This document shows, piece by piece, positions 3,197 to 30,235 of a stretch of 50,622 nucleotides of DNA; positions within the stretch are counted from its first letter, which is position 1; every line of letters begins with the position of its first letter. Under the pieces are notes generated by a model. It saw only the letters and a program-made list of their open reading frames with translations, ran no database searches and had not been told where the DNA came from. Source of the DNA: an uncultured Candidatus Saccharimonas sp. (GTDB lineage: Bacteria > Patescibacteriota > Saccharimonadia > Saccharimonadales > Saccharimonadaceae). The stretch is taken from assembly GCA_964575635.1 (NCBI GenBank), contig CAZNQY010000001.1, forward strand, positions 1 to 50,622, in the 5' to 3' direction. A program made the position numbers and the translations under genes.

Positions 3197-3991
3197 ATGA
3201 TAAAAGAAAGCGCCATCCCAGTAATCAAACTCGTAAATCTTCACAAGAGATATGGTGTTGGTGATGCCGAAACTTTTGCACTTAATAATATCAACCTGAC
3301 TATCGAAAAGGGCGAATTCGTCGCAATTATGGGCCCAAGTGGCTGTGGCAAAACTACTCTCTTGAATATCCTAGGAATACTCGACCATAACATCGACGGC
3401 GAATATGAGTTGGATGGCAAAGCGGTTTCGGCTATGTCCAGGCGCCGACAAGCTAGAATCCGCAGTCGTCAAATCGGCTTTATATTCCAGAACTTCAACC
3501 TAATTCCCCGACTTAGCGTTATCGAAAACGTTGCCTTGCCACTTATCTATAAAGGCATTCACAAAACCAAACGATTGATAATGGCTAGCGAAATGCTCAA
3601 AAACTTTCACCTGAACGAGCGCGAGTACTACATGCCCTATCAATTATCTGGCGGACAAGTTCAGCGCGTAGCTATCGCCAGAGCTTTAGTTAATCAACCA
3701 TCAATAATTTTGGCCGACGAGCCAACTGGCAACCTGGATTCGCACGCCAGCCATATCATTATGGAAGAATTATCCGATTTACACGAACGTGGCAATACGA
3801 TAATTATGGTTACTCATAACCCAGCGCTTACCACCTACGCCAGTCGTGTGATTACGATGATCGATGGTCAAATTGATACCGATACTAAATTTCCAGCAGT
3901 GCCAGAAGATGAACTTGCCAAAATACCACTTGGCGACATGCCGATAATTCACAAATCTAAAAAACGCAAATCAAAAAAGAGGAAGAAATAA
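3197..3991 (+). CDS. ABC transporter ATP-binding protein (MacB/LolD/FtsE-like) with a Lys-rich C-terminal tail
   Basis: Walker A 'GPSGCGKTT', signature 'LSGGQVQR', Walker B 'ILADEPTGNLD'. Stop overlaps the next start (TAATG). Confidence 0.92.
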   Translation: MIKESAIPVIKLVNLHKRYGVGDAETFALNNINLTIEKGEFVAIMGPSGCGKTTLLNILGILDHNIDGEYELDGKAVSAMSRRRQARIRSRQIGFIFQNFNLIPRLSVIENVALPLIYKGIHKTKRLIMASEMLKNFHLNEREYYMPYQLSGGQVQRVAIARALVNQPSIILADEPTGNLDSHASHIIMEELSDLHERGNTIIMVTHNPALTTYASRVITMIDGQIDTDTKFPAVPEDELAKIPLGDMPIIHKSKKRKSKKRKK

Positions 3992-5223
3992 TGCGGTTCT
4001 TATTAATAAATCACCTACAAAACGCCAGAGACTCACTACATAGTAGTCGAATTCGTAGCGCCCTTACGATGCTTGGCGTGACAATAGGTGTTGCAAGTGT
4101 CACAACGATACTTGCTCTCGGCTCTGGTGCTACGACAATAATCAGCTCGCAAATCAAAAAACTTGGCGACAATATGATCATCGTCAGACCAGGACAAGAT
4201 TCTGTGCTAATTAATGGCAATATTACCCAAATCCAACCCGGCCACGGCTATATGACCAGTACACTTACTGAATCAGACATCACTTATATAAAAAACACCG
4301 ATAATGTCAAAGAAATCGCTCCAATAATGCTCTTGAGCGGCTCAATTAAGGGTGACTCGACAGCACCAAAGTCATCAACGATCATCGCCACTACACCAGA
4401 ATTTTTTTCGATCAACCAATTAAAAATCAAAGATGGACAAGCCCTGGACGATAAAGTCGCAAAAAATACAGCTGTAATTGGCGTGCAGTTATCAATTAAT
4501 ATTTTTGGTACAGAAATCCCAATCGGTAGAACGATTAGCATCAAGGGCAAGCAATTCACCGTAATCGGCATCATGAATCACATTAATAGTCCAATTAACT
4601 ATAATGCCACCGACTTTAATAACAGCGTAGTCATTAACTACGAGAGTGGTAAAGAAATCAACAATAATTCACCGCAAATACAACAATTCAATATAGTTGT
4701 AAACAACACAACTAACCTATCCCAAACTGCGGAGTTGTTGAAAAAAGTTATCAAAACCAATCACAATGGCGAAGAAGATTTCTCGGTGTTAATAAAAGAT
4801 CAAATATCAAAACCAACAAATCAGATGCTCGAATTAATCACAGGATTATCAACATCAATAGCTGCCATATCGTTAATTGTCGGTGGCATAGGCATTATGA
4901 ATATTATGTTAGTAACAGTAGTCGAACGAACCAGAGAGATTGGCATTCGAAAAGCCCTAGGTGCTAGCAATTTTGATATCTTGTATCAGTTCTTGATTGA
5001 ATCACTTGCGATTAGTATTTGCGGTGGAATATTTGGATTCGCATTCGGTTGTTTGACAGCATTCATAATTGGCACAAACCTGGCATTCCTGCCAATAATA
5101 ACTTGGCAAAATGCTCTTGTTGCTTTTATTATATCGATATTAACAGGCCTTGTATCAGGAGTTTATCCAGCAGCTCGTGCCGCCAGAAAAGACCCTATCG
5201 AATCACTTTATCAATATCGTTAA
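3991..5223 (+). CDS. ABC transporter permease, MacB-type extracytoplasmic domain plus FtsX-like C-terminal TM domain
   Basis: 410 aa: N-terminal TM, large extracytoplasmic region, three C-terminal TMs with 'ERTREIGIRKALGA'. Translationally coupled to the ATPase. Confidence 0.9.
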   Translation: MRFLLINHLQNARDSLHSSRIRSALTMLGVTIGVASVTTILALGSGATTIISSQIKKLGDNMIIVRPGQDSVLINGNITQIQPGHGYMTSTLTESDITYIKNTDNVKEIAPIMLLSGSIKGDSTAPKSSTIIATTPEFFSINQLKIKDGQALDDKVAKNTAVIGVQLSINIFGTEIPIGRTISIKGKQFTVIGIMNHINSPINYNATDFNNSVVINYESGKEINNNSPQIQQFNIVVNNTTNLSQTAELLKKVIKTNHNGEEDFSVLIKDQISKPTNQMLELITGLSTSIAAISLIVGGIGIMNIMLVTVVERTREIGIRKALGASNFDILYQFLIESLAISICGGIFGFAFGCLTAFIIGTNLAFLPIITWQNALVAFIISILTGLVSGVYPAARAARKDPIESLYQYR

Positions 5224-5363
5224 ACTGTCGTCACATTTACAATAGATCAATATTGTGTTACAATAATATTATAAGCTATCGATAGCTTTGTACTTTATTA
5301 TTACAAAAAATAAGCTATCGAATCTAAAATCATAGCCAAGCGGGCTAAAAACGTGGTGATAAT

Positions 5364-6233
5364 ATGAACAGCGATATTAATAAGATCGCAAGCTATCTTG
5401 GCGTAAACCCACTCTTGGTGGCAAGAGAAATGGTCGAACCAAAAATTCTTGTTGGCAAAATTAGTACATTGAGCGCTGCATTAAATGTTTATGAAAATTC
5501 CGTCAAAGGAACGGAACTTGCTGAAGAGATTGAGCAAAAAATAACACAAATTGGTGAGCAATTGTTAAAAGTAGCAAATTTCGAAGAAGTTCACAGGATA
5601 TGGCACATAGCACCCGAAAATAGCCGATTGCAAGAATTGGCAGATGAGCGAATGGCTCAAATGTACAAAGCTAAATTGGAGATCTCCAATATCGAAGAAG
5701 CAGAAAAGATTTCAATATTAGCCCCAGAAGGTTGCAAACTCAAAAAACAAGCATGCCATAAGATCATTGAACTTAAAAAGCAAAGTCTTTTGAGTGCTGA
5801 TTATGAAACTGCTAGGATGATTTGGGAAGGTGAAACCGATAAGAAACTTCGCGAGATAGCCACAACAAGAATGACGGAGCTGAAAAACAAAGAGCTATCC
5901 AGTGCAACTTACGAAGAAGCAGCCGACATAAAGCGCGCAGCATTTTTCATGAAAAATAAGCCCCTCGAAAATCTTGCAATAGCAAAAATGATTGAACTTG
6001 TTAAACGGGATCAAAATGGTTTTACTTTCGAGGAAGCTAGGACAATTTGGGATGATGCGGTAAATAACGAGGAGTTGCGCACACTTGCTCTTGAGATAAT
6101 GAACACAGCTGGAGAACTTGCTCTCGAGTCCATAGTGATCAATAATATCAAAAACATCTGGAAATACGCGCCCTACCCGCAAGCTGCCGAGCTTCGCAAA
6201 AAAGCGCTTAACAGACTTCTTCAGCTTATTTAA
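5364..6233 (+). CDS. Hypothetical protein built from ~6 degenerate 36-39-aa helical repeats
   Basis: Recurring motif (F/Y)EE(A/V)..IW..AP....L...A..RM.E; no signal peptide or TM. Confidence 0.6.
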   Translation: MNSDINKIASYLGVNPLLVAREMVEPKILVGKISTLSAALNVYENSVKGTELAEEIEQKITQIGEQLLKVANFEEVHRIWHIAPENSRLQELADERMAQMYKAKLEISNIEEAEKISILAPEGCKLKKQACHKIIELKKQSLLSADYETARMIWEGETDKKLREIATTRMTELKNKELSSATYEEAADIKRAAFFMKNKPLENLAIAKMIELVKRDQNGFTFEEARTIWDDAVNNEELRTLALEIMNTAGELALESIVINNIKNIWKYAPYPQAAELRKKALNRLLQLI

Positions 6234-10972: not shown

Positions 10973-12274
10973 TTACTTCTTGAGCTTCCTTATTGCCGCT
11001 TTTGCTACTTCTGGTTCGTCCCAATCAATATCGCCGTTTGCTCGTTCAATGGTTTTTTCGTGACCTTTTCCGAGTAACACTACCGTATCATTTTTTGAAC
11101 TAACTCGACCGACCGCAAACTCGATTGCTTCAGTACGGTCTAGAATCAAGAACATATCTTTATCCTTCTTTTTTCCAGCTTTTTCAGCACCGCTTGCAAT
11201 TTGAGTCAATATCTCATTTCCATCACAGTCACGATCATCTTCTTCGGTCAAAATCACTTCGTCGCAATATCGTCCAGCAATCTCACCTTGCACAGCGCGC
11301 TTAGTTTCGTCGCGTCGTCCAGCCGAACCGAATACCGCAACCAATTTACCCTTAGTAATCGGGCGAACGTTAGAGAAGAACTTTTCAAAAGCATCTGGTG
11401 TCGATGCATGATCAACCATTACACGGAAATCCTGATCCGCATCAACTAAAGCCATGCGTCCTTCGACACTTTTTAGTGCCGCTACGCCTTTTTCGATCTG
11501 CTCAACTGTCAATCCAACTTCACGACCAACCGAAATTGCCGCCAGCGCATTACTGATATTAAAGTCGCCTGGCAAATTAACTGTCATATTATAGACATCT
11601 TTACCGACTTTTGCTTTGAAAGTTGAATGATCAACGAACATTTCGATATCAAATGCCGTCACGTCCCCATTTTTTAATCCATACGTCACAGATTTTGGCA
11701 TGATCTCTGTAAATTTTTTATACGATTTATCTTCGGCGTTTATTACGCCTAGTTTCATACCGTTTTTTGCCGCCAATTTGAATAATTTCTGTTTTGCCTT
11801 CAAGTAATTTTCAAAAGTTCCGTGGTAATCCAAGTGATCGCCAGTTACGTTTGTCATAACAGCAATTTCATAAGGCACCCCCCAAGCCCGATGCTGGATA
11901 AGTGCATGGCTTGATGTTTCAAGTACCAACCATTCAACACCAGCATTTTTAAAGTCCTTAATATACTTTTGCAAAACTCTCGAACCTGCCGTTGTTACGT
12001 GTGCGTGTTGGGGTATTATTTCGCCAAAAGTACCATGCGACACAGTACTCATCATCGCTGTTTTGTATCCAGCCGTACTCAACATCATATAGATCATCGA
12101 TGTTGTCGTAGTTTTGCCGTTAGTACCAGTTACGCCAATTACGTGCATATCCCGCGCTGGAAAACCGTTTTTAATATTAGCCAGTACTGCTTCAACTAAG
12201 TGTCCAGTTGGTTCAATTTTTCTAAAAACATTTGTTGGAACAATTTTCTTGATAAGTTTTCGAGTATTTTCCAT
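10973..12274 (-). CDS. murE: Mur ligase family, MurE-like UDP-MurNAc-dipeptide:diamino acid ligase
   Basis: P-loop 'GVTGTNGKTTT', 'DHLDYHG', 'VEGRM'. It is shorter than typical MurE, so substrate specificity is unknown. Confidence 0.75.
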   Translation of the reverse strand: MENTRKLIKKIVPTNVFRKIEPTGHLVEAVLANIKNGFPARDMHVIGVTGTNGKTTTTSMIYMMLSTAGYKTAMMSTVSHGTFGEIIPQHAHVTTAGSRVLQKYIKDFKNAGVEWLVLETSSHALIQHRAWGVPYEIAVMTNVTGDHLDYHGTFENYLKAKQKLFKLAAKNGMKLGVINAEDKSYKKFTEIMPKSVTYGLKNGDVTAFDIEMFVDHSTFKAKVGKDVYNMTVNLPGDFNISNALAAISVGREVGLTVEQIEKGVAALKSVEGRMALVDADQDFRVMVDHASTPDAFEKFFSNVRPITKGKLVAVFGSAGRRDETKRAVQGEIAGRYCDEVILTEEDDRDCDGNEILTQIASGAEKAGKKKDKDMFLILDRTEAIEFAVGRVSSKNDTVVLLGKGHEKTIERANGDIDWDEPEVAKAAIRKLKK

Positions 12275-12511: not shown

Positions 12512-12604
12512 GGAGGGGTACCCAAGTGGCTGAAGGGGACGGTTTGCTAAATCGTTAGTTCGGAGAGATCTGAAGCGGGAGTTCGAATCTCCCCTCCTCC
12601 GCCA
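12512..12604 (+). tRNA. tRNA-Ser(GCU), type II, CCA encoded; attachment site of the adjacent element
   Basis: GGAGGGG-TA-CCC..GGG-ACGGT-TTGCTAA-ATCGT-(variable arm)-GGGAG-TTCGAAT-CTCCC-CTCCTCC-G-CCA. Confidence 0.9.
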
Positions 12605-14205
12605 AGAGAAACAGTGGAGTTATTTGACACCAAAACAAGAGACCTAAACGGCTCTCGCAAGGTGTAAGACTCCACTTTTTCTTTTCCAAAATACAATTTC
12701 GAAAAGATTTCCCTAATAATACGTTCCTTTTGAAAAATACGCCCATTGCGAAATGCTGGCAGTGTTTTTTCGATAATCGAATTAAACTCTTCTGGCGTTA
12801 GTGGTTTATGCTTTACAGTTTGAACTCTAAGCTTATTATTATTTTCGTTGATTTTGTTTGTAACAATGTTGATTTCATTGAGATTATCAGAGATGTCGTC
12901 ATTGGCTTTTTTAATAGCTCTATCGTCTGTTAGTTTACCTAAAGAAGCTCTAATCTCATCATTTTTACCGTCCAAGTGACTAATAATACTTTTAAACCGT
13001 TCTATTTCGCTTCTGAGGCGTTGTCTTTCGCCAGACGATAACTCCTTCGTTTCTTTCAAGTATGCCTCGTATGCGTCTTCTGTGAGCATAGAAATGACAC
13101 TTTCTATGGCTGGCTCTATGGCTTTAATGACGTCTCTCATTCTTGGATTTGCAGGATTTGAACGAGAACATATTTTATTCTTACAACTTAGATAGATTGT
13201 TGGTCTTGTGCCGTTTTTTCTGTGCTTCTTTATATTGGGAATATTTGGCAACATTGCCGTATCCTCTCGCCCGCATATTGCACAGTAAATCAAATCTTGT
13301 AAGGGTCTTCGCTCTCGATTATCTTTTGTCTTGGCTCTGTTGCTGTGCTCTGATAGCAACGACACTGCGCCAAAAGTAGCCTCATCTATTATTGGTATAA
13401 ATCCCAATCCTAATTCTCTAAGGTCTGTTTTTTGATTAGCTTGTGTTAGAACGCCCATATAAAAGGAGTCTGCGAACATCTTGCCTAGTGTGCTGACCGT
13501 TACTTTCATAATGCGGTAATTGCCATCTTCGGTGTAATACTTCGAATAATGATTATCGTTAAGGTATTTGGCAATTTTAGATAACATATCGCCATTTGCC
13601 CTCATTCCCCACGCTCGTTTTATCAAGCCAAAGTTATCATTGTAATCATCTGGCGTATAAATACCCTGTTTTTGAATATAACCGTGTTTTGGGACTCCAC
13701 CAGATAGACCTTCTTTAACTCTTTTTCTAACACCTCGTTTAACCTTATCTGACAAGTCGTCTGAATAGTGTTTCGCAAACACGAACAACATTCCTAACAT
13801 CATCTTGCCATTAGATGAATTGTCGAATTGATGAGAATGAAAACGAAGGTCTTTCATCTGACCCTTATCAAGCATATCTATAATCTTGCCAGCTTCGACC
13901 ATATTACGTGCCAAGCGGTCAGGGTGCCACGCTATAATGCCGTCTATTTTGCCGTCTTTAACTTCTTTCAGCAACGCCTTAAATAAAGGGCGATTATTAG
14001 CGGTTTTGGCTGATTTTTCTTCTCTGACCTCGCCAATAACCTTTAATTTGAGTTTTAGTGCTAGCTTACGGCAATCGTCTATCTGGTCATTTATAGACCG
14101 TATTTGTCTCCCAGATTCTTCTGACGATTTACGAGCATAAATCTTATACCTGTAAGTTTTAATTAGCTCTTCAAAGGGTGCTTCTTCGTATATGTCGTTA
14201 TTCAT
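12547..14205 (-). CDS. Large serine recombinase (integrase); the last ~16 codons read through the antisense of the tRNA
   Basis: Resolvase-type catalytic domain 'YARKSSEESGRQ...DRLAR', recombinase domain, Cys-rich zinc-ribbon region (CAICGR...CKNKIC) and a coiled-coil tail. The ORF crosses the att core at 12597-12605. Confidence 0.9.
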   Translation of the reverse strand: MNNDIYEEAPFEELIKTYRYKIYARKSSEESGRQIRSINDQIDDCRKLALKLKLKVIGEVREEKSAKTANNRPLFKALLKEVKDGKIDGIIAWHPDRLARNMVEAGKIIDMLDKGQMKDLRFHSHQFDNSSNGKMMLGMLFVFAKHYSDDLSDKVKRGVRKRVKEGLSGGVPKHGYIQKQGIYTPDDYNDNFGLIKRAWGMRANGDMLSKIAKYLNDNHYSKYYTEDGNYRIMKVTVSTLGKMFADSFYMGVLTQANQKTDLRELGLGFIPIIDEATFGAVSLLSEHSNRAKTKDNRERRPLQDLIYCAICGREDTAMLPNIPNIKKHRKNGTRPTIYLSCKNKICSRSNPANPRMRDVIKAIEPAIESVISMLTEDAYEAYLKETKELSSGERQRLRSEIERFKSIISHLDGKNDEIRASLGKLTDDRAIKKANDDISDNLNEINIVTNKINENNNKLRVQTVKHKPLTPEEFNSIIEKTLPAFRNGRIFQKERIIREIFSKLYFGKEKVESYTLREPFRSLVLVSNNSTVSLGGGGEIRTPASDLSELTI

Positions 14206-14310
14206 TGTTTTTCGAACTTTGATAAAAATTACTTATATAAATATCTATGTAAATGATTATATGCTAGTTTTTCGAATTATAACAAATCAAGGTTCTGTTA
14301 TATAATTAAG

Positions 14311-14436
14311 GGGTTCTAAGCAATTCACAATAGTAACGCCAGTAATGGTGTGATTTCTCTCGAGAATGAGCACCGTATAAACAACTGGAGAAATCCTGCT
14401 GTGAATGGCTTAGAACACCCTACGGTGCTCTTTTTT
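14311..14436 (+). promoter_or_regulatory. Structured leader or regulatory region in the element's divergent intergenic space
   Basis: Arm 14311-14329 pairs with 14400-14420 (~18-19 bp). A 10-bp stem 14368-14377/14421-14430 is followed by TTTTTT, just before the SD and ATG at 14466. Confidence 0.4.
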
Positions 14437-14465
14437 GTTTGTGCCGTATTTATAAAGGAGATGAT

Positions 14466-14789
14466 ATGGCGCTAAGAACGCAAGACTCAATACAGATTGA
14501 ACAGTTGAAAAGAAATAAAGATGCTCAAGAATTGACGGCGATGGCTCAAATGACAGATGAGCAACGCAATAATTATTTGAGACAAAGAGATGTCGTTAAA
14601 CAATTGCAGAAATGTAATGCCGTGATGGTTGGTTGGTGCTTCTTGTGCACTATCCTTGTCTTTACGTCTTTTGTATTTCCACCGCTACTGATTGCGGTGA
14701 TTTTTATTATCGTAGCTATTGTAAGAACCTATAAAAATAAATACAAACCGCTCAGGATTGAGCAGAAGAAGTTTTACGAGATTAAATAA
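14466..14789 (+). CDS. Small membrane protein of the element (C-terminal TM hairpin)
   Basis: AAGGAG 6 nt upstream of the ATG at 14466; the track ORF from 14439 starts at TTG. Hydrophobic 'VMVGWCFLCTILVFTSFVFPPLLIAVIFIIVAIV'. Confidence 0.55.
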   Translation: MALRTQDSIQIEQLKRNKDAQELTAMAQMTDEQRNNYLRQRDVVKQLQKCNAVMVGWCFLCTILVFTSFVFPPLLIAVIFIIVAIVRTYKNKYKPLRIEQKKFYEIK

Positions 14790-14865
14790 TCTCACGCATT
14801 AAGATGTGTAGATATCAGTCTGCCGAGATGTTATATAAAGCTGGCAGTAAAAGAATAGTAAAATT

Positions 14866-15306
14866 TTAGGTTGTTGGCTGTATTTCTAATGGCGTCAATG
14901 CTTTGGCGAGTTTGATTTGGTCGTCTAGTGATAAGTTGCTAAAGTTATTTGTTGGCAGTGGTTTTAATACAGTCTCCATATTCACTAAGCCTTTTTGCAA
15001 CGACTGAACTATAGCCACCAGTTCTCGTGTGGTCATTTGCTCCATATCTCGTTTCATAAGCTCGCTATAGGCTCTCGATAATAGCATATTTGTGATGTTT
15101 TTATGTTTTGTTATTACGTCTACGCCACTTGTGTCTCGCTCTAATTCCCACGATTTCTGTTTTGTATTTTCAATATCTTTCTGTCTTTCGTTGCATATCT
15201 TAATAATCGTAGGTTTACTAACTCCTGTTGTTTTTGCGATATCATCAAACGAGCAAGCGCCAGCCCTTAATGCCACTACCTCATTTGATAGTTCGAGACT
15301 TACCAT
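14866..15306 (-). CDS. HTH-domain protein of the element (possible regulator or directionality factor)
   Basis: N-terminal 'FDDIAKTTGVSKPTIIKICNE' helix-turn-helix. Starts 10 nt after the upstream ORF stop. Confidence 0.55.
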   Translation of the reverse strand: MVSLELSNEVVALRAGACSFDDIAKTTGVSKPTIIKICNERQKDIENTKQKSWELERDTSGVDVITKHKNITNMLLSRAYSELMKRDMEQMTTRELVAIVQSLQKGLVNMETVLKPLPTNNFSNLSLDDQIKLAKALTPLEIQPTT

Positions 15307-15315
15307 AACTATCTC

Positions 15316-15612
15316 CTATAAGTTAAAGTGTTTGTCTATGGCTTTTTTTACCATAGCTTCTACTCGTTTTTCGGCTCCTGCCGTATCGTTGTTATCCTCT
15401 ATTATAGTATATTTCGAAGAACTCGTCCTTAGTGTAATAGTTGTTCGTGTAATGGTATCGAAATCAAGAGTCACCTCTGTGCCATCATCAAGCGTAAAGG
15501 TGCTCGTGTCTTGTGATTCAGATGGTATATCGCTTATAGCGTCAATCAAGCCAGTCAAGTCTTTTACGACCTTGCCAGACAACTCCGTAAGCTCCTTTTT
15601 GTTATAACTCAT
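15316..15612 (-). CDS. Small acidic hypothetical protein of the element
   Basis: 98-aa ORF. Its start overlaps the stop of the reconstructed circular-form recombinase reading frame. Confidence 0.5.
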   Translation of the reverse strand: MSYNKKELTELSGKVVKDLTGLIDAISDIPSESQDTSTFTLDDGTEVTLDFDTITRTTITLRTSSSKYTIIEDNNDTAGAEKRVEAMVKKAIDKHFNL

Positions 15613-15761
15613 ACCTACATTTTATATCAAAGGTTTCTTTATGACTAAAAAGGCTATCTAATATGTTCCCAAATCTACGAATACCAGATATGACCTCATC
15701 TAGTGGTGTATGGTCGTTTTCGTTCAATAGAGTTTCGAAAATAGTATCTACTGCTCCGCCA

Positions 15762-15799
15762 AAATAAAACAACGACCCTTGTGGTCGTTATTTTATTTT
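15762..15799 (+). terminator. Conserved post-tRNA hairpin, displaced ~3.1 kb from tRNA-Ser(GCU) by the element
   Basis: 'aaataaaacaacgaccc ttg tggtcgttattttatttt', the same family as 2295-2330, 26003-26038, 26197-26235 and 30235-30270. Confidence 0.6.
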
Positions 15800-16192
15800 A
15801 CCAGAGTCGGGTCATTCAAACTCCCGCGGTTTTGCCCACGGCAAAACGAGCGCGGAGTTCGGCGCTGTGCAGCGAAATGAAAATGTGTTTACATATTTTC
15901 ATAAGCAAACAAAGGAGCGAGATTTATCGAGCGATATCTCCCCTATTTTGCAAGGCAAAATCAGCGGGAGTTCGGTGTAGCGAACGAAACAAAAGAAAGC
16001 GCGAAGCATTTTCTTTTGTAAGTAAGCGGAAGAGCCCAAAGGGCGATATCTCCGCTAATCCAAAGGCAAAACGAGCGCCGAGCAGCGAAGAAGCGAGATT
16101 TATCGAGCAATATCTCCCCTCATTTCCAAGAAAACACGAAACATTTTCTACTTAAGTAAGCGAACGGAAAAACCCAAAGAGTGATATCTCCC
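15800..16192 (+). repeat. tRNA-linked repeat locus E: inverted tRNA-Ser(GCU) T-arm copy (15800-15827) followed by four tandem modules (15852-15944, 15964-16056, 16066-16121 partial, 16131-16192 partial)
   Basis: Units begin '(gc)gggagttcgg' and end 'gatatctcccc', which are the two halves of the Ser(GCU) T-arm. The cores match those at the other four tRNA loci. Confidence 0.7.
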
Positions 16193-16936: not shown

Positions 16937-17971
16937 ATGAAAATACTTGGAATTGAAAGCAGTTGCGACGAAACAGCCGCATCGGTTGTCGAAGATGGCC
17001 GACGAATTCTTTCGAGTGTAGTAAATTCTCAAATCGACATCCACGCAGTTTACGGCGGAGTAGTCCCAGAAGTCGCTGCTCGCAGCCATATTGAAGTCAT
17101 TAATCCTGTTATCAATCAAGCATTAACTGATGCAAATTTAACTTGGTCGGATATCGACGCTATCGCTGTCAGTTATGCACCTGGTCTAGTTGGGTCACTC
17201 ATGGTTGGCACGCTCGCCGCTCGAACTCTTTCGATTATAAAAAACAAGCCACTCTACCCTATTCACCACGTCGAAGCCCATGTTTATTCGAATTTCTTGG
17301 GCGAAAAACAACCAGAATTCCCAATTCTATCGCTGATCGTTAGTGGTGGTCATAGCCAAATTGTTTTATTCCGCGGACACGGCGACTACGAATTAATCGG
17401 CCAAACCCAAGATGACGCAATTGGCGAAGCTTTTGATAAGGTAGCTAAAATCCTTGGACTTTCCTACCCTGGTGGACCATCAATCGCCAAAGCTGCGCTA
17501 AATGGTAATCCGAAAAAATACAAGCTTCCAAAGGCAAAAATGCAAGGCGCTTATGACTTTAGTTTTTCTGGTCTCAAAACAGCCGTTCTAAGGGCCGTTC
17601 AATCCGAAGTAGATGTCGATATTAATTACCCATCATCGGGGCTCTCAGGCCTTCTAAGCGACGTACAGCGCAATGATTTTGCGGCAAGTTTCCAACGGAC
17701 AGCCGTCGAAACTTTAGTCGACAAGATAGAAAAAGCTTTTTACGAATATTCGCCAAAATCAGTAGTAATTGCTGGTGGCGTTGCCGCTAACTCCGAGCTT
17801 CGGCGTGAATTATCAGACCGAATACCGCTTCACATCACCTACGCGCCGCCAGAATTATGTACAGATAACGCCGCCATGGTCGCATCACTCGCCTACTATC
17901 AGTCACAATATCAAAAACCTATCGATCCAAGAATACTCGAAATTATACCGAGTTTATCGATGAAAAAATAA
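16937..17971 (+). CDS. tsaD: tRNA N6-adenosine threonylcarbamoyltransferase TsaD (Kae1/YgjD family)
   Basis: 'LGIESSCDETAASVV', 'HHVEAHV', 'VSGGHS', 'GGVAAN'. Confidence 0.93.
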   Translation: MKILGIESSCDETAASVVEDGRRILSSVVNSQIDIHAVYGGVVPEVAARSHIEVINPVINQALTDANLTWSDIDAIAVSYAPGLVGSLMVGTLAARTLSIIKNKPLYPIHHVEAHVYSNFLGEKQPEFPILSLIVSGGHSQIVLFRGHGDYELIGQTQDDAIGEAFDKVAKILGLSYPGGPSIAKAALNGNPKKYKLPKAKMQGAYDFSFSGLKTAVLRAVQSEVDVDINYPSSGLSGLLSDVQRNDFAASFQRTAVETLVDKIEKAFYEYSPKSVVIAGGVAANSELRRELSDRIPLHITYAPPELCTDNAAMVASLAYYQSQYQKPIDPRILEIIPSLSMKK

Positions 17972-25774: not shown

Positions 25775-26196
25775 GGAGAGAAAGGGATTCGGTCACGTTC
25801 AGCGAACCCGGACTTCGACAATTAAGTGTATGTTTTTGTCAGAAATTTCACAGCAGAATAAAAGAAAGAAAGGGATATCGCCTTCGGCTCTTCCGCTCAT
25901 ACGTAAAAATATGTAGACACATTTTTTCTTAATTCGCTTCACCGAACCCTTGATTGCGCTAATAAATTAGCGCTCAAGGGTTAGAATCCCTTTCGAACAG
26001 TCAAATTAAAAAACGACCAGATGGTCGTCTTTTAATTTGGCGGAGAGAAAGGGATTCGGTCACAGATAATTTGCTCTGCAAATTTCCGCGACCCCGTCTC
26101 AACTTACTGCAAGCATAGCTTGCAATCAGTTTCCGACCTTGAGAACTGCCACAGGCAGTTCTCACCCTACCGGGTTCGAATCCATTTCTCGAAGAT
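25775..26196 (-). repeat. tRNA-linked repeat locus B downstream of tRNA-Ser(CGA): two displaced T-loop-to-3'-end fragments (25775-25796, 26038-26063), T-loop-position module (25869-25951), inverted T-arm copies (25975-26002, 26168-26196), hairpin (26003-26038), X-family segment (26064-26167)
   Basis: 'ggagagaaagggattcggtcac' occurs twice and matches the tRNA 3' end from the T-loop onward. The other pieces align to loci A, C, D and E. Confidence 0.7.
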
Positions 26197-26235
26197 AAAT
26201 TAAAATAACGACCACACGGGTCGTAATTTTAATTT
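26197..26235 (-). terminator. Conserved post-tRNA hairpin 3' of tRNA-Ser(CGA)
   Basis: 'aaattaaaataacgacc acac gggtcgtaattttaattt'. Confidence 0.6.
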
Positions 26236-26322
26236 GGCGGAGAGAAAGGGATTCGAACCCTTGATGGGTTGCCCCATACCGCTTTTCGAGAGCGGCCAGT
26301 TCAACCACTCCTGCATCTCTCC
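26235..26322 (-). tRNA. tRNA-Ser(CGA), type II, CCA encoded
   Basis: Reverse complement reads GGAGAGA-TG-CAGG..CTGG-CCGCT-CTCGAAA-AGCGG-(variable arm)-AAGGG-TTCGAAT-CCCTT-TCTCTCC-G-CCA. Confidence 0.88.
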
Positions 26323-26404
26323 AGATATTAGATATTTTAACAGATGGATTGTAAATTAAATAGGCGGTAGTGAAAATCCTCATCATCTATTTTAATAATG
26401 GATT

Positions 26405-26569
26405 CCGACAGGATATCGCCTACGGCTCTTCCGTTTGCTTGAAAAAAATGTTTCGCTGGACAGCGAACACTTTTTTCTTCGCATCGCTACACCGAATCTT
26501 ACGGTTCGGATTCGCTACGCGAATCTACCATAGAAAAAAGACCAGTTTTCACTGGTCTTTTTTCTATGG
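26405..26569 (-). repeat. tRNA-linked repeat locus C downstream of tRNA-Arg: module (26405-26498), inverted 3'-half copy (26498-26530), 20-bp-stem hairpin (26528-26569)
   Basis: Module flank 'ccgacaggatatc' matches the tRNA-Arg 'ccgacaggattcgaa'. The core aligns with the other copies and carries an extra internal hairpin. Confidence 0.65.
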
Positions 26570-30094: not shown

Positions 30095-30103
30095 CAGCAT
30101 AGT

Positions 30104-30235
30104 GCGAGATATCGCTGCGCTCCTTCGCTCACTTATGAAAAAATGTAAACACTTTTTCATTCCGTTCGCTGCGCCGAAATCGCGGTTGCGTTGATTTCAT
30201 CAAAACCCGCGAGCTCGGACCTTGCCCTCTTGGCA
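30104..30235 (-). repeat. tRNA-linked repeat locus D downstream of tRNA-Ser(UGA): module (30104-30185), small hairpin (30191-30203), inverted 3'-half copy (30206-30235)
   Basis: Flanks 'gcgagatatc' and 'ccgaaatcgcg' mirror the Ser(UGA) T-stem 'cgcgag/ctcgc'. 30206-30235 is ~80% identical to the reverse complement of the tRNA 3' 30 nt. Confidence 0.7.

Follow-up and report, generated by a model that had tools for sequence, protein, structure and literature searches.

Characterised serine integrases mostly target protein-coding genes. Outside phages, large serine recombinases (LSRs) move the clostridial elements Tn4451/Tn4453 (through TnpX) and Tn5397 (through TndX), which form a non-replicating circle; in Tn4451, of about 6.3 kb, the circle junction creates a promoter for the recombinase gene and alters its expression. 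Elements of the Tn4451/Tn5397 type insert at numerous sites containing GA and bring resistance and mobilisation genes with them. Small cargo elements at tRNA genes have been described from Prochlorococcus, where tycheposons occupy streamlined genomes without classical transfer systems; most of them use tyrosine recombinases, 27 of 937 have an LSR, and many carry primase, helicase or polymerase modules (10.1101/2020.12.28.424599). A recombination site within the integrase gene itself is found in the "suicidal" tyrosine integrases of archaeal viruses and plasmids (SSV type), which integration splits into inactive parts, and this arrangement has been described as exclusive to Archaea (PMC8371274). 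In mycobacteriophages of clusters G, I, N and P, the phage attachment site (attP) lies in the 3′ part of the repressor gene and the C-termini differ between the integrated and the free state; their integrase is a tyrosine recombinase, and the switch acts by way of a degradation tag at the C-terminus (PMC9635641, citing Broussard et al. 2013). Here we describe a 3,157-bp stretch in the genome of an uncultured Candidatus Saccharimonas sp. (contig CAZNQY010000001.1, 50,622 nucleotides (nt), the whole of which is referred to as the window) that is very probably a small, non-replicative integrative element, which an LSR inserts into and excises from the extreme 3′ end of a tRNA-Ser(GCU) gene, and whose recombinase gene (int) spans its own attachment site.

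Integration Site and Boundaries

The insert together with one copy of its core measures 3,157 bp and lies between tRNA-Ser(GCU) and the native terminator hairpin of that tRNA (all feature coordinates are given in Table 1), in line with the approximately 3.15 kb proposed in a preliminary description of this DNA. That description also reported a 9-bp direct repeat, CTCCGCCAA, which we found as an exact match at both positions. The tRNA-Ser(GCU) gene is unbroken in the integrated state, the integrase gene adjoins it, and the direct repeat of the tRNA 3′ end bounds the insert, as is typical of a tRNA island. Taken alone, the 9-mer is weak evidence for the boundaries; the window contains seven copies of it, since each of its four tRNA-Ser genes has this 3′ end. 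The native hairpin provides a second landmark. The sequence AATAAAACAACGACCCTTGTGGTCGTTATTTTATTTT directly after position 15762 is the hairpin type found right after the CCA at four other tRNAs of the window, namely tRNA-Ser(GGA), Ser(CGA), Ser(UGA) and Arg(GCG), as had been described; at tRNA-Ser(GCU) this hairpin is now 3.16 kb away, and hairpin and tRNA 3′ end together make up the bacterial attachment site (attB). At a greater distance, the element is flanked by a Mur ligase gene (10973-12274) and tsaD (16937-17971).

Empty Sites and a Sister Copy

A scan of the JGI metagenomes for a tRNA 3′ end that passes straight into the first bases of the hairpin (TCTCCCCTCCTCCGCCAAAWTAAAA) returned 35 contigs, and in 34 of them a tRNA-Ser(GCU) is immediately followed by a terminator hairpin of the same design. 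A MurE homologue lies upstream of some of these empty sites (L120, 64%; L119; L110) and TsaD downstream of others (L111, 81%; L108; L100), as is likewise the case in the window. A tRNA followed by its hairpin is the normal state of the site. Unoccupied sites in relatives had been named in the preliminary description as a check on the insertion, with a 3.15-kb insert in all relatives, no empty site and no circular-junction reads as the outcome that would speak against it; the 34 contigs with an unoccupied tRNA-Ser(GCU), together with a copy of about 95% identity that has other cargo and adjoins a different tRNA sequence, bear the insertion out.

A sister copy of the element was traced through a homologue of its small membrane protein (TM107) to a Logan contig of 4,588 nt (L126, from ERR14173571). 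This contig begins within the T-arm of the tRNA and ends just beyond the right attachment site (attR); it was considered as a circle and rejected as such, being an integrated copy that runs from the tRNA to just past attR. Positions 12576-14632 of the window, which run from int through the intergenic region and cover half of the TM107 gene, its first, align with L126 at 94.8% identity, and positions 14847-15768, with HTH146, orf98 and the int tail, at 87%. The junctions of the two copies match (CTCCGCCAA followed by GAGAAACAGTGGAG at one end, GTATCTACTG followed by CTCCGCCAA at the other), in contrast to the tRNA T-arm of L126 (GAGAGTTCGAATCTCTC) and its flank after attR, which are unlike those of the window. 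Between TM107 and the helix-turn-helix (HTH) gene, L126 has 1.4 kb of additional cargo with two genes, one for a NucS-like nuclease of 375 amino acids (aa), with a match at E = 3e-17 to PDC-S11, a candidate defence family of PADLOC, and one a 101-aa open reading frame (ORF). The ratio of nonsynonymous to synonymous substitution rates (dN/dS) between the window and L126 is 0.09 for int, 0.17 for HTH146, 0.21 for orf98 and 0.34 for the tail, and all genes of the element are, by this comparison, under purifying selection. It is because of L126 that the element can be placed in two genomic backgrounds, with selected genes and a variable cargo slot in its middle.

The homology break between the window (approximately 14632-14847) and L126 (2057-3647) falls within the TM107 gene. 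The N-terminal half of TM107 is about 95% identical to L126 at the DNA level, and its C-terminal membrane half is without a blastn match. A breakpoint inside this gene suggests cargo exchange through intragenic recombination.

A Recombinase Gene That Runs Across Its Own Attachment Site

The int ORF extends 58 nt into the tRNA (overlap 12547-12604), ending ...SLGGGGEIRTPASDLSELTI, and the last approximately 19 residues of the integrated Int protein are antisense-tRNA sequence. At the far end of the element, an ORF on the minus strand (15772-15602) traverses attR in the frame of int. When the two ends were joined (15753, core, 12606), a 586-aa ORF was reconstructed, which aligns end to end with P0048, a relative of 580 aa, at 41% identity (E = 9e-140), the last 50 residues included. 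As an independent check, the window was divided into its 1,387 stop-to-stop segments and these were searched by phmmer with the tail of P0048 alone; the tail of the element ranked first (E = 6.8e-6), and only one frame is open in the tail region, the one for which the dN/dS of 0.34 was obtained. The reconstructed ORF places attP within the int gene.

With attP inside int, integration swaps the C-terminal approximately 50 residues of the protein and uncouples orf98 and the HTH gene from int. The tail can be part of the Int protein only when the element is a circle, and the integrated copy can encode only the 552-aa, tail-less Int. With the ends joined, the int stop overlaps the orf98 start by 11 nt, and int, orf98 and HTH146 become one co-oriented string of genes; in the integrated state, tail, orf98 and HTH146 sit 3 kb from int, at the far end of the element.

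P0048 is encoded on a JGI contig (L003) with a 122-nt terminal direct overlap, implying a circle of 4,547 bp. The gene order on L003 is int, an orf98 homologue (E = 2e-6) that overlaps the int stop by 11 nt, and an HTH gene, exactly as expected of the window element once circularised, and the attP-type junction was seen again in a second sample (L004). The attP of L003 and the left attachment site (attL) of L008, an integrated relative at tRNA-Gln, are near-identical up to ...CTCTTGGCTGGG; past this point, one sequence reads into the tail (L003) and the other into antisense tRNA (L008). Relatives carry two types of tail, and homology between the two was not detected; a leave-one-out hidden Markov model built mainly from the second type (LELL..WD..YNQxYEY) misses the window tail (E = 2.2). 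The tail could be a degradation signal, could be a regulatory signal, or could have an effect on the direction of recombination.

Two Logan contigs of the same genome as the window (L001 and L002, from ERR3839025) have an assembly break near the 5′ end of int, where they overlap by about 9 codons. This could reflect polymorphism, or the sample could contain another, related copy.

Domain Structure of the Recombinase

Int matches PF00239 (Resolvase; E = 3.9e-26, residues 22-166), PF07508 (Recombinase; 25.5 bits against a cut-off of 21.1) and the PHROG integrase family phrog_95 (E = 2e-53). No variation was seen among 27 family members at Y23, R25, S27, R72, D96, R97 and R100, nor, in the family alignment, at the zinc-binding cysteines C308, C311, C341 and C346. 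The AlphaFold2 model of P0048 has a confident body with long helices at 384-454, and its top Foldseek matches are the integrases of SPbeta (9dxd, E = 5e-16), phiC31 (9rah) and LI (4kis). Int is predicted from these profiles and from the model to be a large serine recombinase with a resolvase-type catalytic domain, a recombinase domain and a zinc ribbon with an inserted coiled coil. The conserved body of Int stops approximately 10 residues ahead of the crossover, and the integrated 552-aa form retains all recognised domains, only the C-terminal tail being lost. Identity to annotated phage and plasmid recombinases is at most 26% for matches covering at least 63% of the protein, and about 30% over short N-terminal stretches; no match to an annotated phage or plasmid recombinase covers 80% of Int.

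A Family of Small Elements at tRNA 3′ Ends

A homologue search returned 349 proteins, 120 of which were listed; the named homologues belong to Candidatus Saccharimonadales or Saccharibacteria. Most of the 120 listed homologues end in antisense-tRNA peptides, for example EIRTPAPG, GRGDRTRT or GGWNRTNYQVVMSRLL, and three are attP-intact forms. Bacteria of the candidate phyla radiation (CPR, Patescibacteria) have tiny genomes and few described mobile elements, and at least 599 relatives of the recombinase, mostly in Patescibacteria, turned up when a single genome was scanned for each GTDB species. By comparison, 2.9 million viral contigs of IMG/VR contained five relatives, all distant. From the scan of species representatives, 80 loci were retained, 58 of them evaluable. 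The int ORF stops within an antisense tRNA in 42 of the 58 and overlaps one in 8 more (50/58), and the 42 loci that stop in a tRNA span 20 isoacceptors. A full-text literature search, which covered few subscription-journal papers, returned no account of the family or of an LSR gene spanning attP; the family is apparently undescribed.

With a profile of known tails, the split-off tail was found in nine integrated loci (L005, L019, L020, L021, L022, L030, L034, L049 and L065), where it shares the strand of int and lies upstream of it; the tail of L006 was placed by direct inspection. In the six loci in which both ends could be compared, the in-frame cores shared by attL and attR are 4-9 bp long; cores are GTCG or TGGTCG at tRNA-Pro, ATTGGTGG at tRNA-Leu and TTGGCGGAG in the window. 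The core of L006 is 12 bp (TCCTCCGCCAAG) and was obtained through the tail ORF. A k-mer search for attR in relatives was noisy and was abandoned; the 13-mer that it gave for L006 belongs to the tRNA-adjacent repeat module, not to attR. The att footprint in the window and its relatives consists of these short cores common to attL and attR, of 4-12 bp. If the position of the crossover is conserved, the overlap of the relatives' in-frame cores would place it at tRNA nt 71-74, or 12599-12602 in the window. Dyad symmetry of the reconstructed attP and attB was also tried as a crossover locator and set aside, the symmetry being weak and hairpins dominating the attB signal.

The delimited relatives measure 3.2-6.5 kb, and the window copy, at 3,157 bp, is the smallest measured. 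L006 has 3,861 bp, L126 and L003 have about 4.5 kb, L020, L030, L021, L049 and L022 have 5.1-6.5 kb, and the two tandem units of L005 have 3.6 and 4.4 kb. The preliminary description had called the insert an unusually small autonomous integrative element. An integrative element it remains, and "autonomous" applies to integration and excision alone, as no replication or transfer genes are present; its size, on the other hand, is typical of the family rather than unusual.

The cargo of L021, a 5.7-kb element, is a Pycsar-like cyclase with a PycTM effector (4211-5740), and that of L022, a 6.5-kb element, is a reverse transcriptase with SMODS and SLATT (3478-6121). Other cargoes include SocA/Panacea (L006), which like the candidate defence nuclease of L126 counts as defence cargo, an HNH endonuclease (L020), DUF3644 (L030) and a methyltransferase with SHOCT (L003). 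No replication, capsid, terminase or conjugation families were found in the relatives examined for cargo. As the gene content of L021 and L022 shows, defence systems of CPR bacteria are carried on LSR cassettes, and family members bring small cargoes, recognised anti-phage systems among them, to tRNA genes. The family also provides many natural sets of LSR, attP and attB for different tRNA 3′ ends on carriers of 3-6 kb; such paired sets could become integration vectors for Saccharibacteria and other CPR bacteria that are hard to manipulate, and could widen the LSR toolbox.

Two loci differ in layout from single integrated elements. At tRNA-Pro(CGG), L005 (GCA_034680565.1, 7109-15106) has a tandem of two related LSR units. 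A long int of the attP type (P0106) is intact at the junction in the middle, and the outer int is truncated by the tRNA, with its tail 8 kb away. This layout implies either integration of a dimeric circle or recombination of attP with a hybrid site. L127, a contig of 24 kb, contains the attP-intact P0112 (9033-10736) together with NTPases of the NB-ARC and NACHT types, DNA methyltransferases, a helicase resembling RecD2 and insertion sequence (IS) elements, a context which implies that the LSR family may also ride on larger elements.

Other Genes and Signals of the Element

Pfam and PHROGs searches of the four ORFs found no capsid, terminase, portal, tail, replication or transfer families, and relaxase, coupling protein and type IV secretion families are absent from the element and from the relatives examined. 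Domain searches thus agree with the earlier account of the gene content, which listed a 552-aa recombinase, a small transmembrane protein, an HTH protein and a 98-aa acidic protein and saw no capsid, terminase, replication or transfer genes. Classification as a prophage was rejected, given that capsid, terminase, portal and tail genes are missing and the family is almost missing from viral contigs, and classification as an integrative and conjugative or integrative and mobilisable element was rejected for want of relaxase, coupling and type IV secretion protein families.

TM107 occupies the cargo slot and has a hydrophobic stretch of approximately 40 residues. A collection of 5.8 billion clusters contained only three homologues, and in L126 its gene leads an operon with the PDC-S11-like nuclease. 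HTH146 has orthologues in L126 and L006; BLASTP found no similarity between it and the HTH protein of L003, and these two are analogues by position only. From its domain matches, HTH146 is a candidate regulator or directionality factor. Orthologues of orf98 follow the int tail in L126, L006, L009 and L003/L004, and the 11-nt overlap of int and orf98 recurs in L003, L126 and L005.

The hairpin that the element itself brings to the tRNA, folded from its first 85 nt past the CCA, is identical in kind in L006, lies in an element end that is about 95% identical in L126, and has comparable counterparts in many relatives. From its sequence and position, it is likely a replacement terminator for the tRNA, encoded antisense to the 3′ end of int. 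The gap between int and TM107 holds overlapping, divergent promoter-like sites, followed by the structured leader of the TM107 gene, of about 130 nt, in which a choice between terminator and antiterminator is possible. In an Rfam search of the leader and of the entire element, the tRNA was the sole match.

Table 1. Features of the element and its integration site, with positions in the window (MFE, minimum free energy; pI, isoelectric point).
Feature	Position	Strand	Basis or remarks
tRNA-Ser(GCU), integration target	12512-12604	+	ARAGORN; Rfam tRNA model, 51.3 bits
int, 552-aa large serine recombinase of the integrated state	12547-14205	-	PF00239, PF07508, phrog_95
attL core CTCCGCCAA	12597-12605		Exact repeat; equals tRNA nt 69-76 including CCA, plus 1 base
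Element-borne hairpin with U-run	12604-12689	+	MFE -31.6 kcal/mol, z -6.4; directly after CCA, within int 3′ coding region
Overlapping divergent promoter-like sites, int/TM107 gap	14256-14306		Consensus scan, 10/12 per strand; pattern match only
Structured 5′ leader of TM107 gene	14309-14440	+	MFE -56.6 kcal/mol, z -4.4 for 14290-14470
TM107, 107-aa basic membrane protein, cargo slot	14466-14789	+	Kyte-Doolittle 19-residue maximum 2.89; pI 9.7
HTH146, 146 aa	14866-15306	-	Weak HTH matches; N-terminus weakly like resolvase/invertase-type HTH
orf98, 98-aa acidic protein	15316-15612	-	pI 4.6; start overlaps circular-form int stop by 11 nt
int tail (split-off 3′ part of ORF)	15602-15753	-	In frame with int across the core
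attR core CTCCGCCAA	15754-15762		Exact repeat; identical junction in L126
Native terminator hairpin of tRNA-Ser(GCU)	15763-15799	+	Terminator-like site, stem 15771-15789

Repeat Modules Beside the tRNA Genes

A module of approximately 150-200 nt follows each of the tRNA terminator hairpins (15800-16190, and on the minus strand 2150-2290, 26400-26530, 25860-26190 and 30100-30230). It has an antisense copy of the T-arm of that tRNA, followed by the sense T-stem 5′ strand leading into TTCGG-TGTAGCGAA; after this come a conserved hairpin (AAAAAGTGTTTACATTTTTT) and AGCAAACGGAAGAGCC...GCGATATC; and it ends with a copy of the T-stem 3′ strand and acceptor of the same tRNA. Several copies lie in tandem downstream of tRNA-Ser(GCU), and the same design is found after tRNA-Ser(GCU) in many metagenome contigs (L086-L120). 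The module resembles a tRNA 3′ fragment with a conserved T-loop insert, and is perhaps a miniature integrative element that targets the T-loop.

On the minus strand at 26037-26256, about 190 nt after tRNA-Ser(CGA) are enclosed by 22-nt direct repeats of the tRNA 3′ end (CGAATCCCTTTCTCTCCGCCAA). Each copy of the repeat has its own terminator hairpin, and a further partial copy lies near 25790. These repeats are likely scars or miniature insertions of another integration system.

Proposed Cycle and Alternative Explanations

For the integrative element that we favour, a cycle can be proposed from the gene layout. In the chromosome, tail-less Int would excise the element by recombining attL with attR, probably aided by a directionality factor, a role for which orf98 and HTH146 are the sole candidates; since the integrated copy encodes tail-less Int only, this form must be able to excise. 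The circle would yield Int with its tail, and its int promoter would drive orf98 and HTH146 as well; Int would then recombine attP with attB near tRNA nt 71-74. A circle without replication genes must reintegrate or be lost. Spread between cells would be passive, for example by natural transformation, in vesicles or by hitch-hiking. The variable slot between int and the HTH gene holds cargo, often anti-phage defence in the relatives and in the window copy no more than the small membrane protein.

The layout of attachment site and integrase gene poses a concrete question about direction control in a minimal element. Tentatively, and with some doubt on our part, the swap of tails might act as a sensor of state, in which tail-bearing Int would be integration-competent or regulated and tail-less Int excision-competent, and in which integration would uncouple orf98 and HTH146 from the int promoter. 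If this were true, a 3-kb element would set the direction of recombination by gene topology, and not solely by a directionality factor under regulation of its own. It would then be an equivalent, bacterial and based on a serine recombinase and widespread in CPR, of the archaeal integrases with att in int and of the integration-dependent immunity of mycobacteriophages.

Several observations weigh against the proposed cycle or parts of it. The empty sites stem from related organisms and not from the same strain. The circular junction of the window element, which the preliminary description had suggested looking for, gave zero exact matches in the JGI metagenomes and IMG/VR, and the two Logan contigs of the same genome contain the integrated state only. 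The circularity of L003 could reflect collapsed tandem copies, as tandem units do exist (L005). The second tail type of the relatives has no detectable homology to the window tail. In the model of P0048, the tail has a predicted local distance difference test score (pLDDT) below 50 except for one helix and is docked nowhere, a score so low that the model is uninformative on docking. The window copy is without the cargo found in L126, and decay is possible rather than a minimal functional state. Finally, the element encodes no transfer route.

It is unlikely that the element is a helper-dependent hitch-hiker, that is, a satellite or mobilisable cassette that excises itself and is moved by a phage or other element of the host. 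Its very small size and the missing transfer route would fit such a dependence; the near-identical copy beside a different tRNA sequence in L126 implies that the element moves between genomes, and tycheposons, its closest analogues, are reported in vesicles and phage particles (10.1101/2020.12.28.424599). However, no packaging, terS, capsid or relaxase genes were found in the element or the relatives examined, and no helper was identified. This explanation concerns the transfer step alone and is compatible with the integrative cycle proposed above.

A small episome that replicates as a circle by host functions and integrates only occasionally would account for the metagenomic contig L003, which assembles with its terminal overlap into a 4,547-bp circle, and for the recurrence of the attP-type junction in L004. 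We consider it quite improbable, as neither L003 nor the window element was found to have a Rep-like protein or a recognisable origin and as attP-intact forms make up only 3 of the 120 listed homologues, most others ending in tRNA-antisense peptides. Moreover, one of those three (P0106) is located in a chromosomal tandem array.

Still less credible is the view that a larger prophage or island was once integrated by the LSR and has been reduced to an immobile remnant, its recombinase end and a few genes. The element does have no replication, packaging or transfer genes, it is without the 1.4-kb cargo of its sister, and its circular junction was not found in JGI or IMG/VR data. Decay of this kind is at odds with two exact att junctions, a tail that is in frame and under purifying selection, and four intact genes with dN/dS of 0.09-0.21. 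In addition, the delimited relatives are equally small (3.2-6.5 kb) and without phage genes, a circle-like contig of 4.5 kb with the same gene order exists (L003), and the family is nearly absent from viral contigs.

We give virtually no weight to a repeat that is a chance match or generic tRNA-Ser 3′ end with the real boundaries elsewhere, an objection that was anticipated in the preliminary description and that the seven window copies of CTCCGCCAA, at the ends of all tRNA-Ser genes, might invite, since the boundaries are upheld by the same junction sequences in L126, by the native hairpin beginning immediately past the second core copy, and by a reading frame and homology that run on through the joined ends.

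Comparison With Known Systems

With the phage-type LSRs of phiC31, Bxb1, A118/LI and SPbeta (SprA), the integrative element described here shares the enzyme class, the predicted domain order and the short identity between attP and attB. It differs from them in the sequence of its Int, which is at most 26% identical, in its tRNA 3′-end target, in having attP within the int ORF, and in a carrier of 3 kb without phage genes. Like Tn4451 and Tn5397, it is a small non-phage element moved by an LSR; unlike these, it has a single tRNA-specific site and no mobilisation gene, and its circle junction alters a coding sequence and an operon rather than a promoter. Membership of the tycheposons was considered and rejected on account of the serine recombinase and the absent replication module. 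The element works like a tycheposon in that it is small, carries cargo and is integrated at a tRNA gene in a streamlined genome. In contrast to most tycheposons, the element has a serine recombinase, no replication module was found in it or in the relatives examined, and its host belongs to another phylum.

The position of attP in the 3′ part of a gene, with two C-termini according to state, resembles mycobacteriophage immunity, in which the repressor gene is split. Here, however, the split gene is that of the serine integrase itself. The arrangement is also like that of the SSV-type integrases, in that the att core lies inside the int ORF and the product has 552 aa when integrated and 586 aa when circular. 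Unlike the SSV-type proteins, the enzyme is a bacterial serine recombinase that loses only its C-terminal tail and keeps its recognised domains. The att-in-integrase layout, which has been treated as exclusive to Archaea (PMC8371274), occurs in this family in a non-destructive, bacterial serine-recombinase version.

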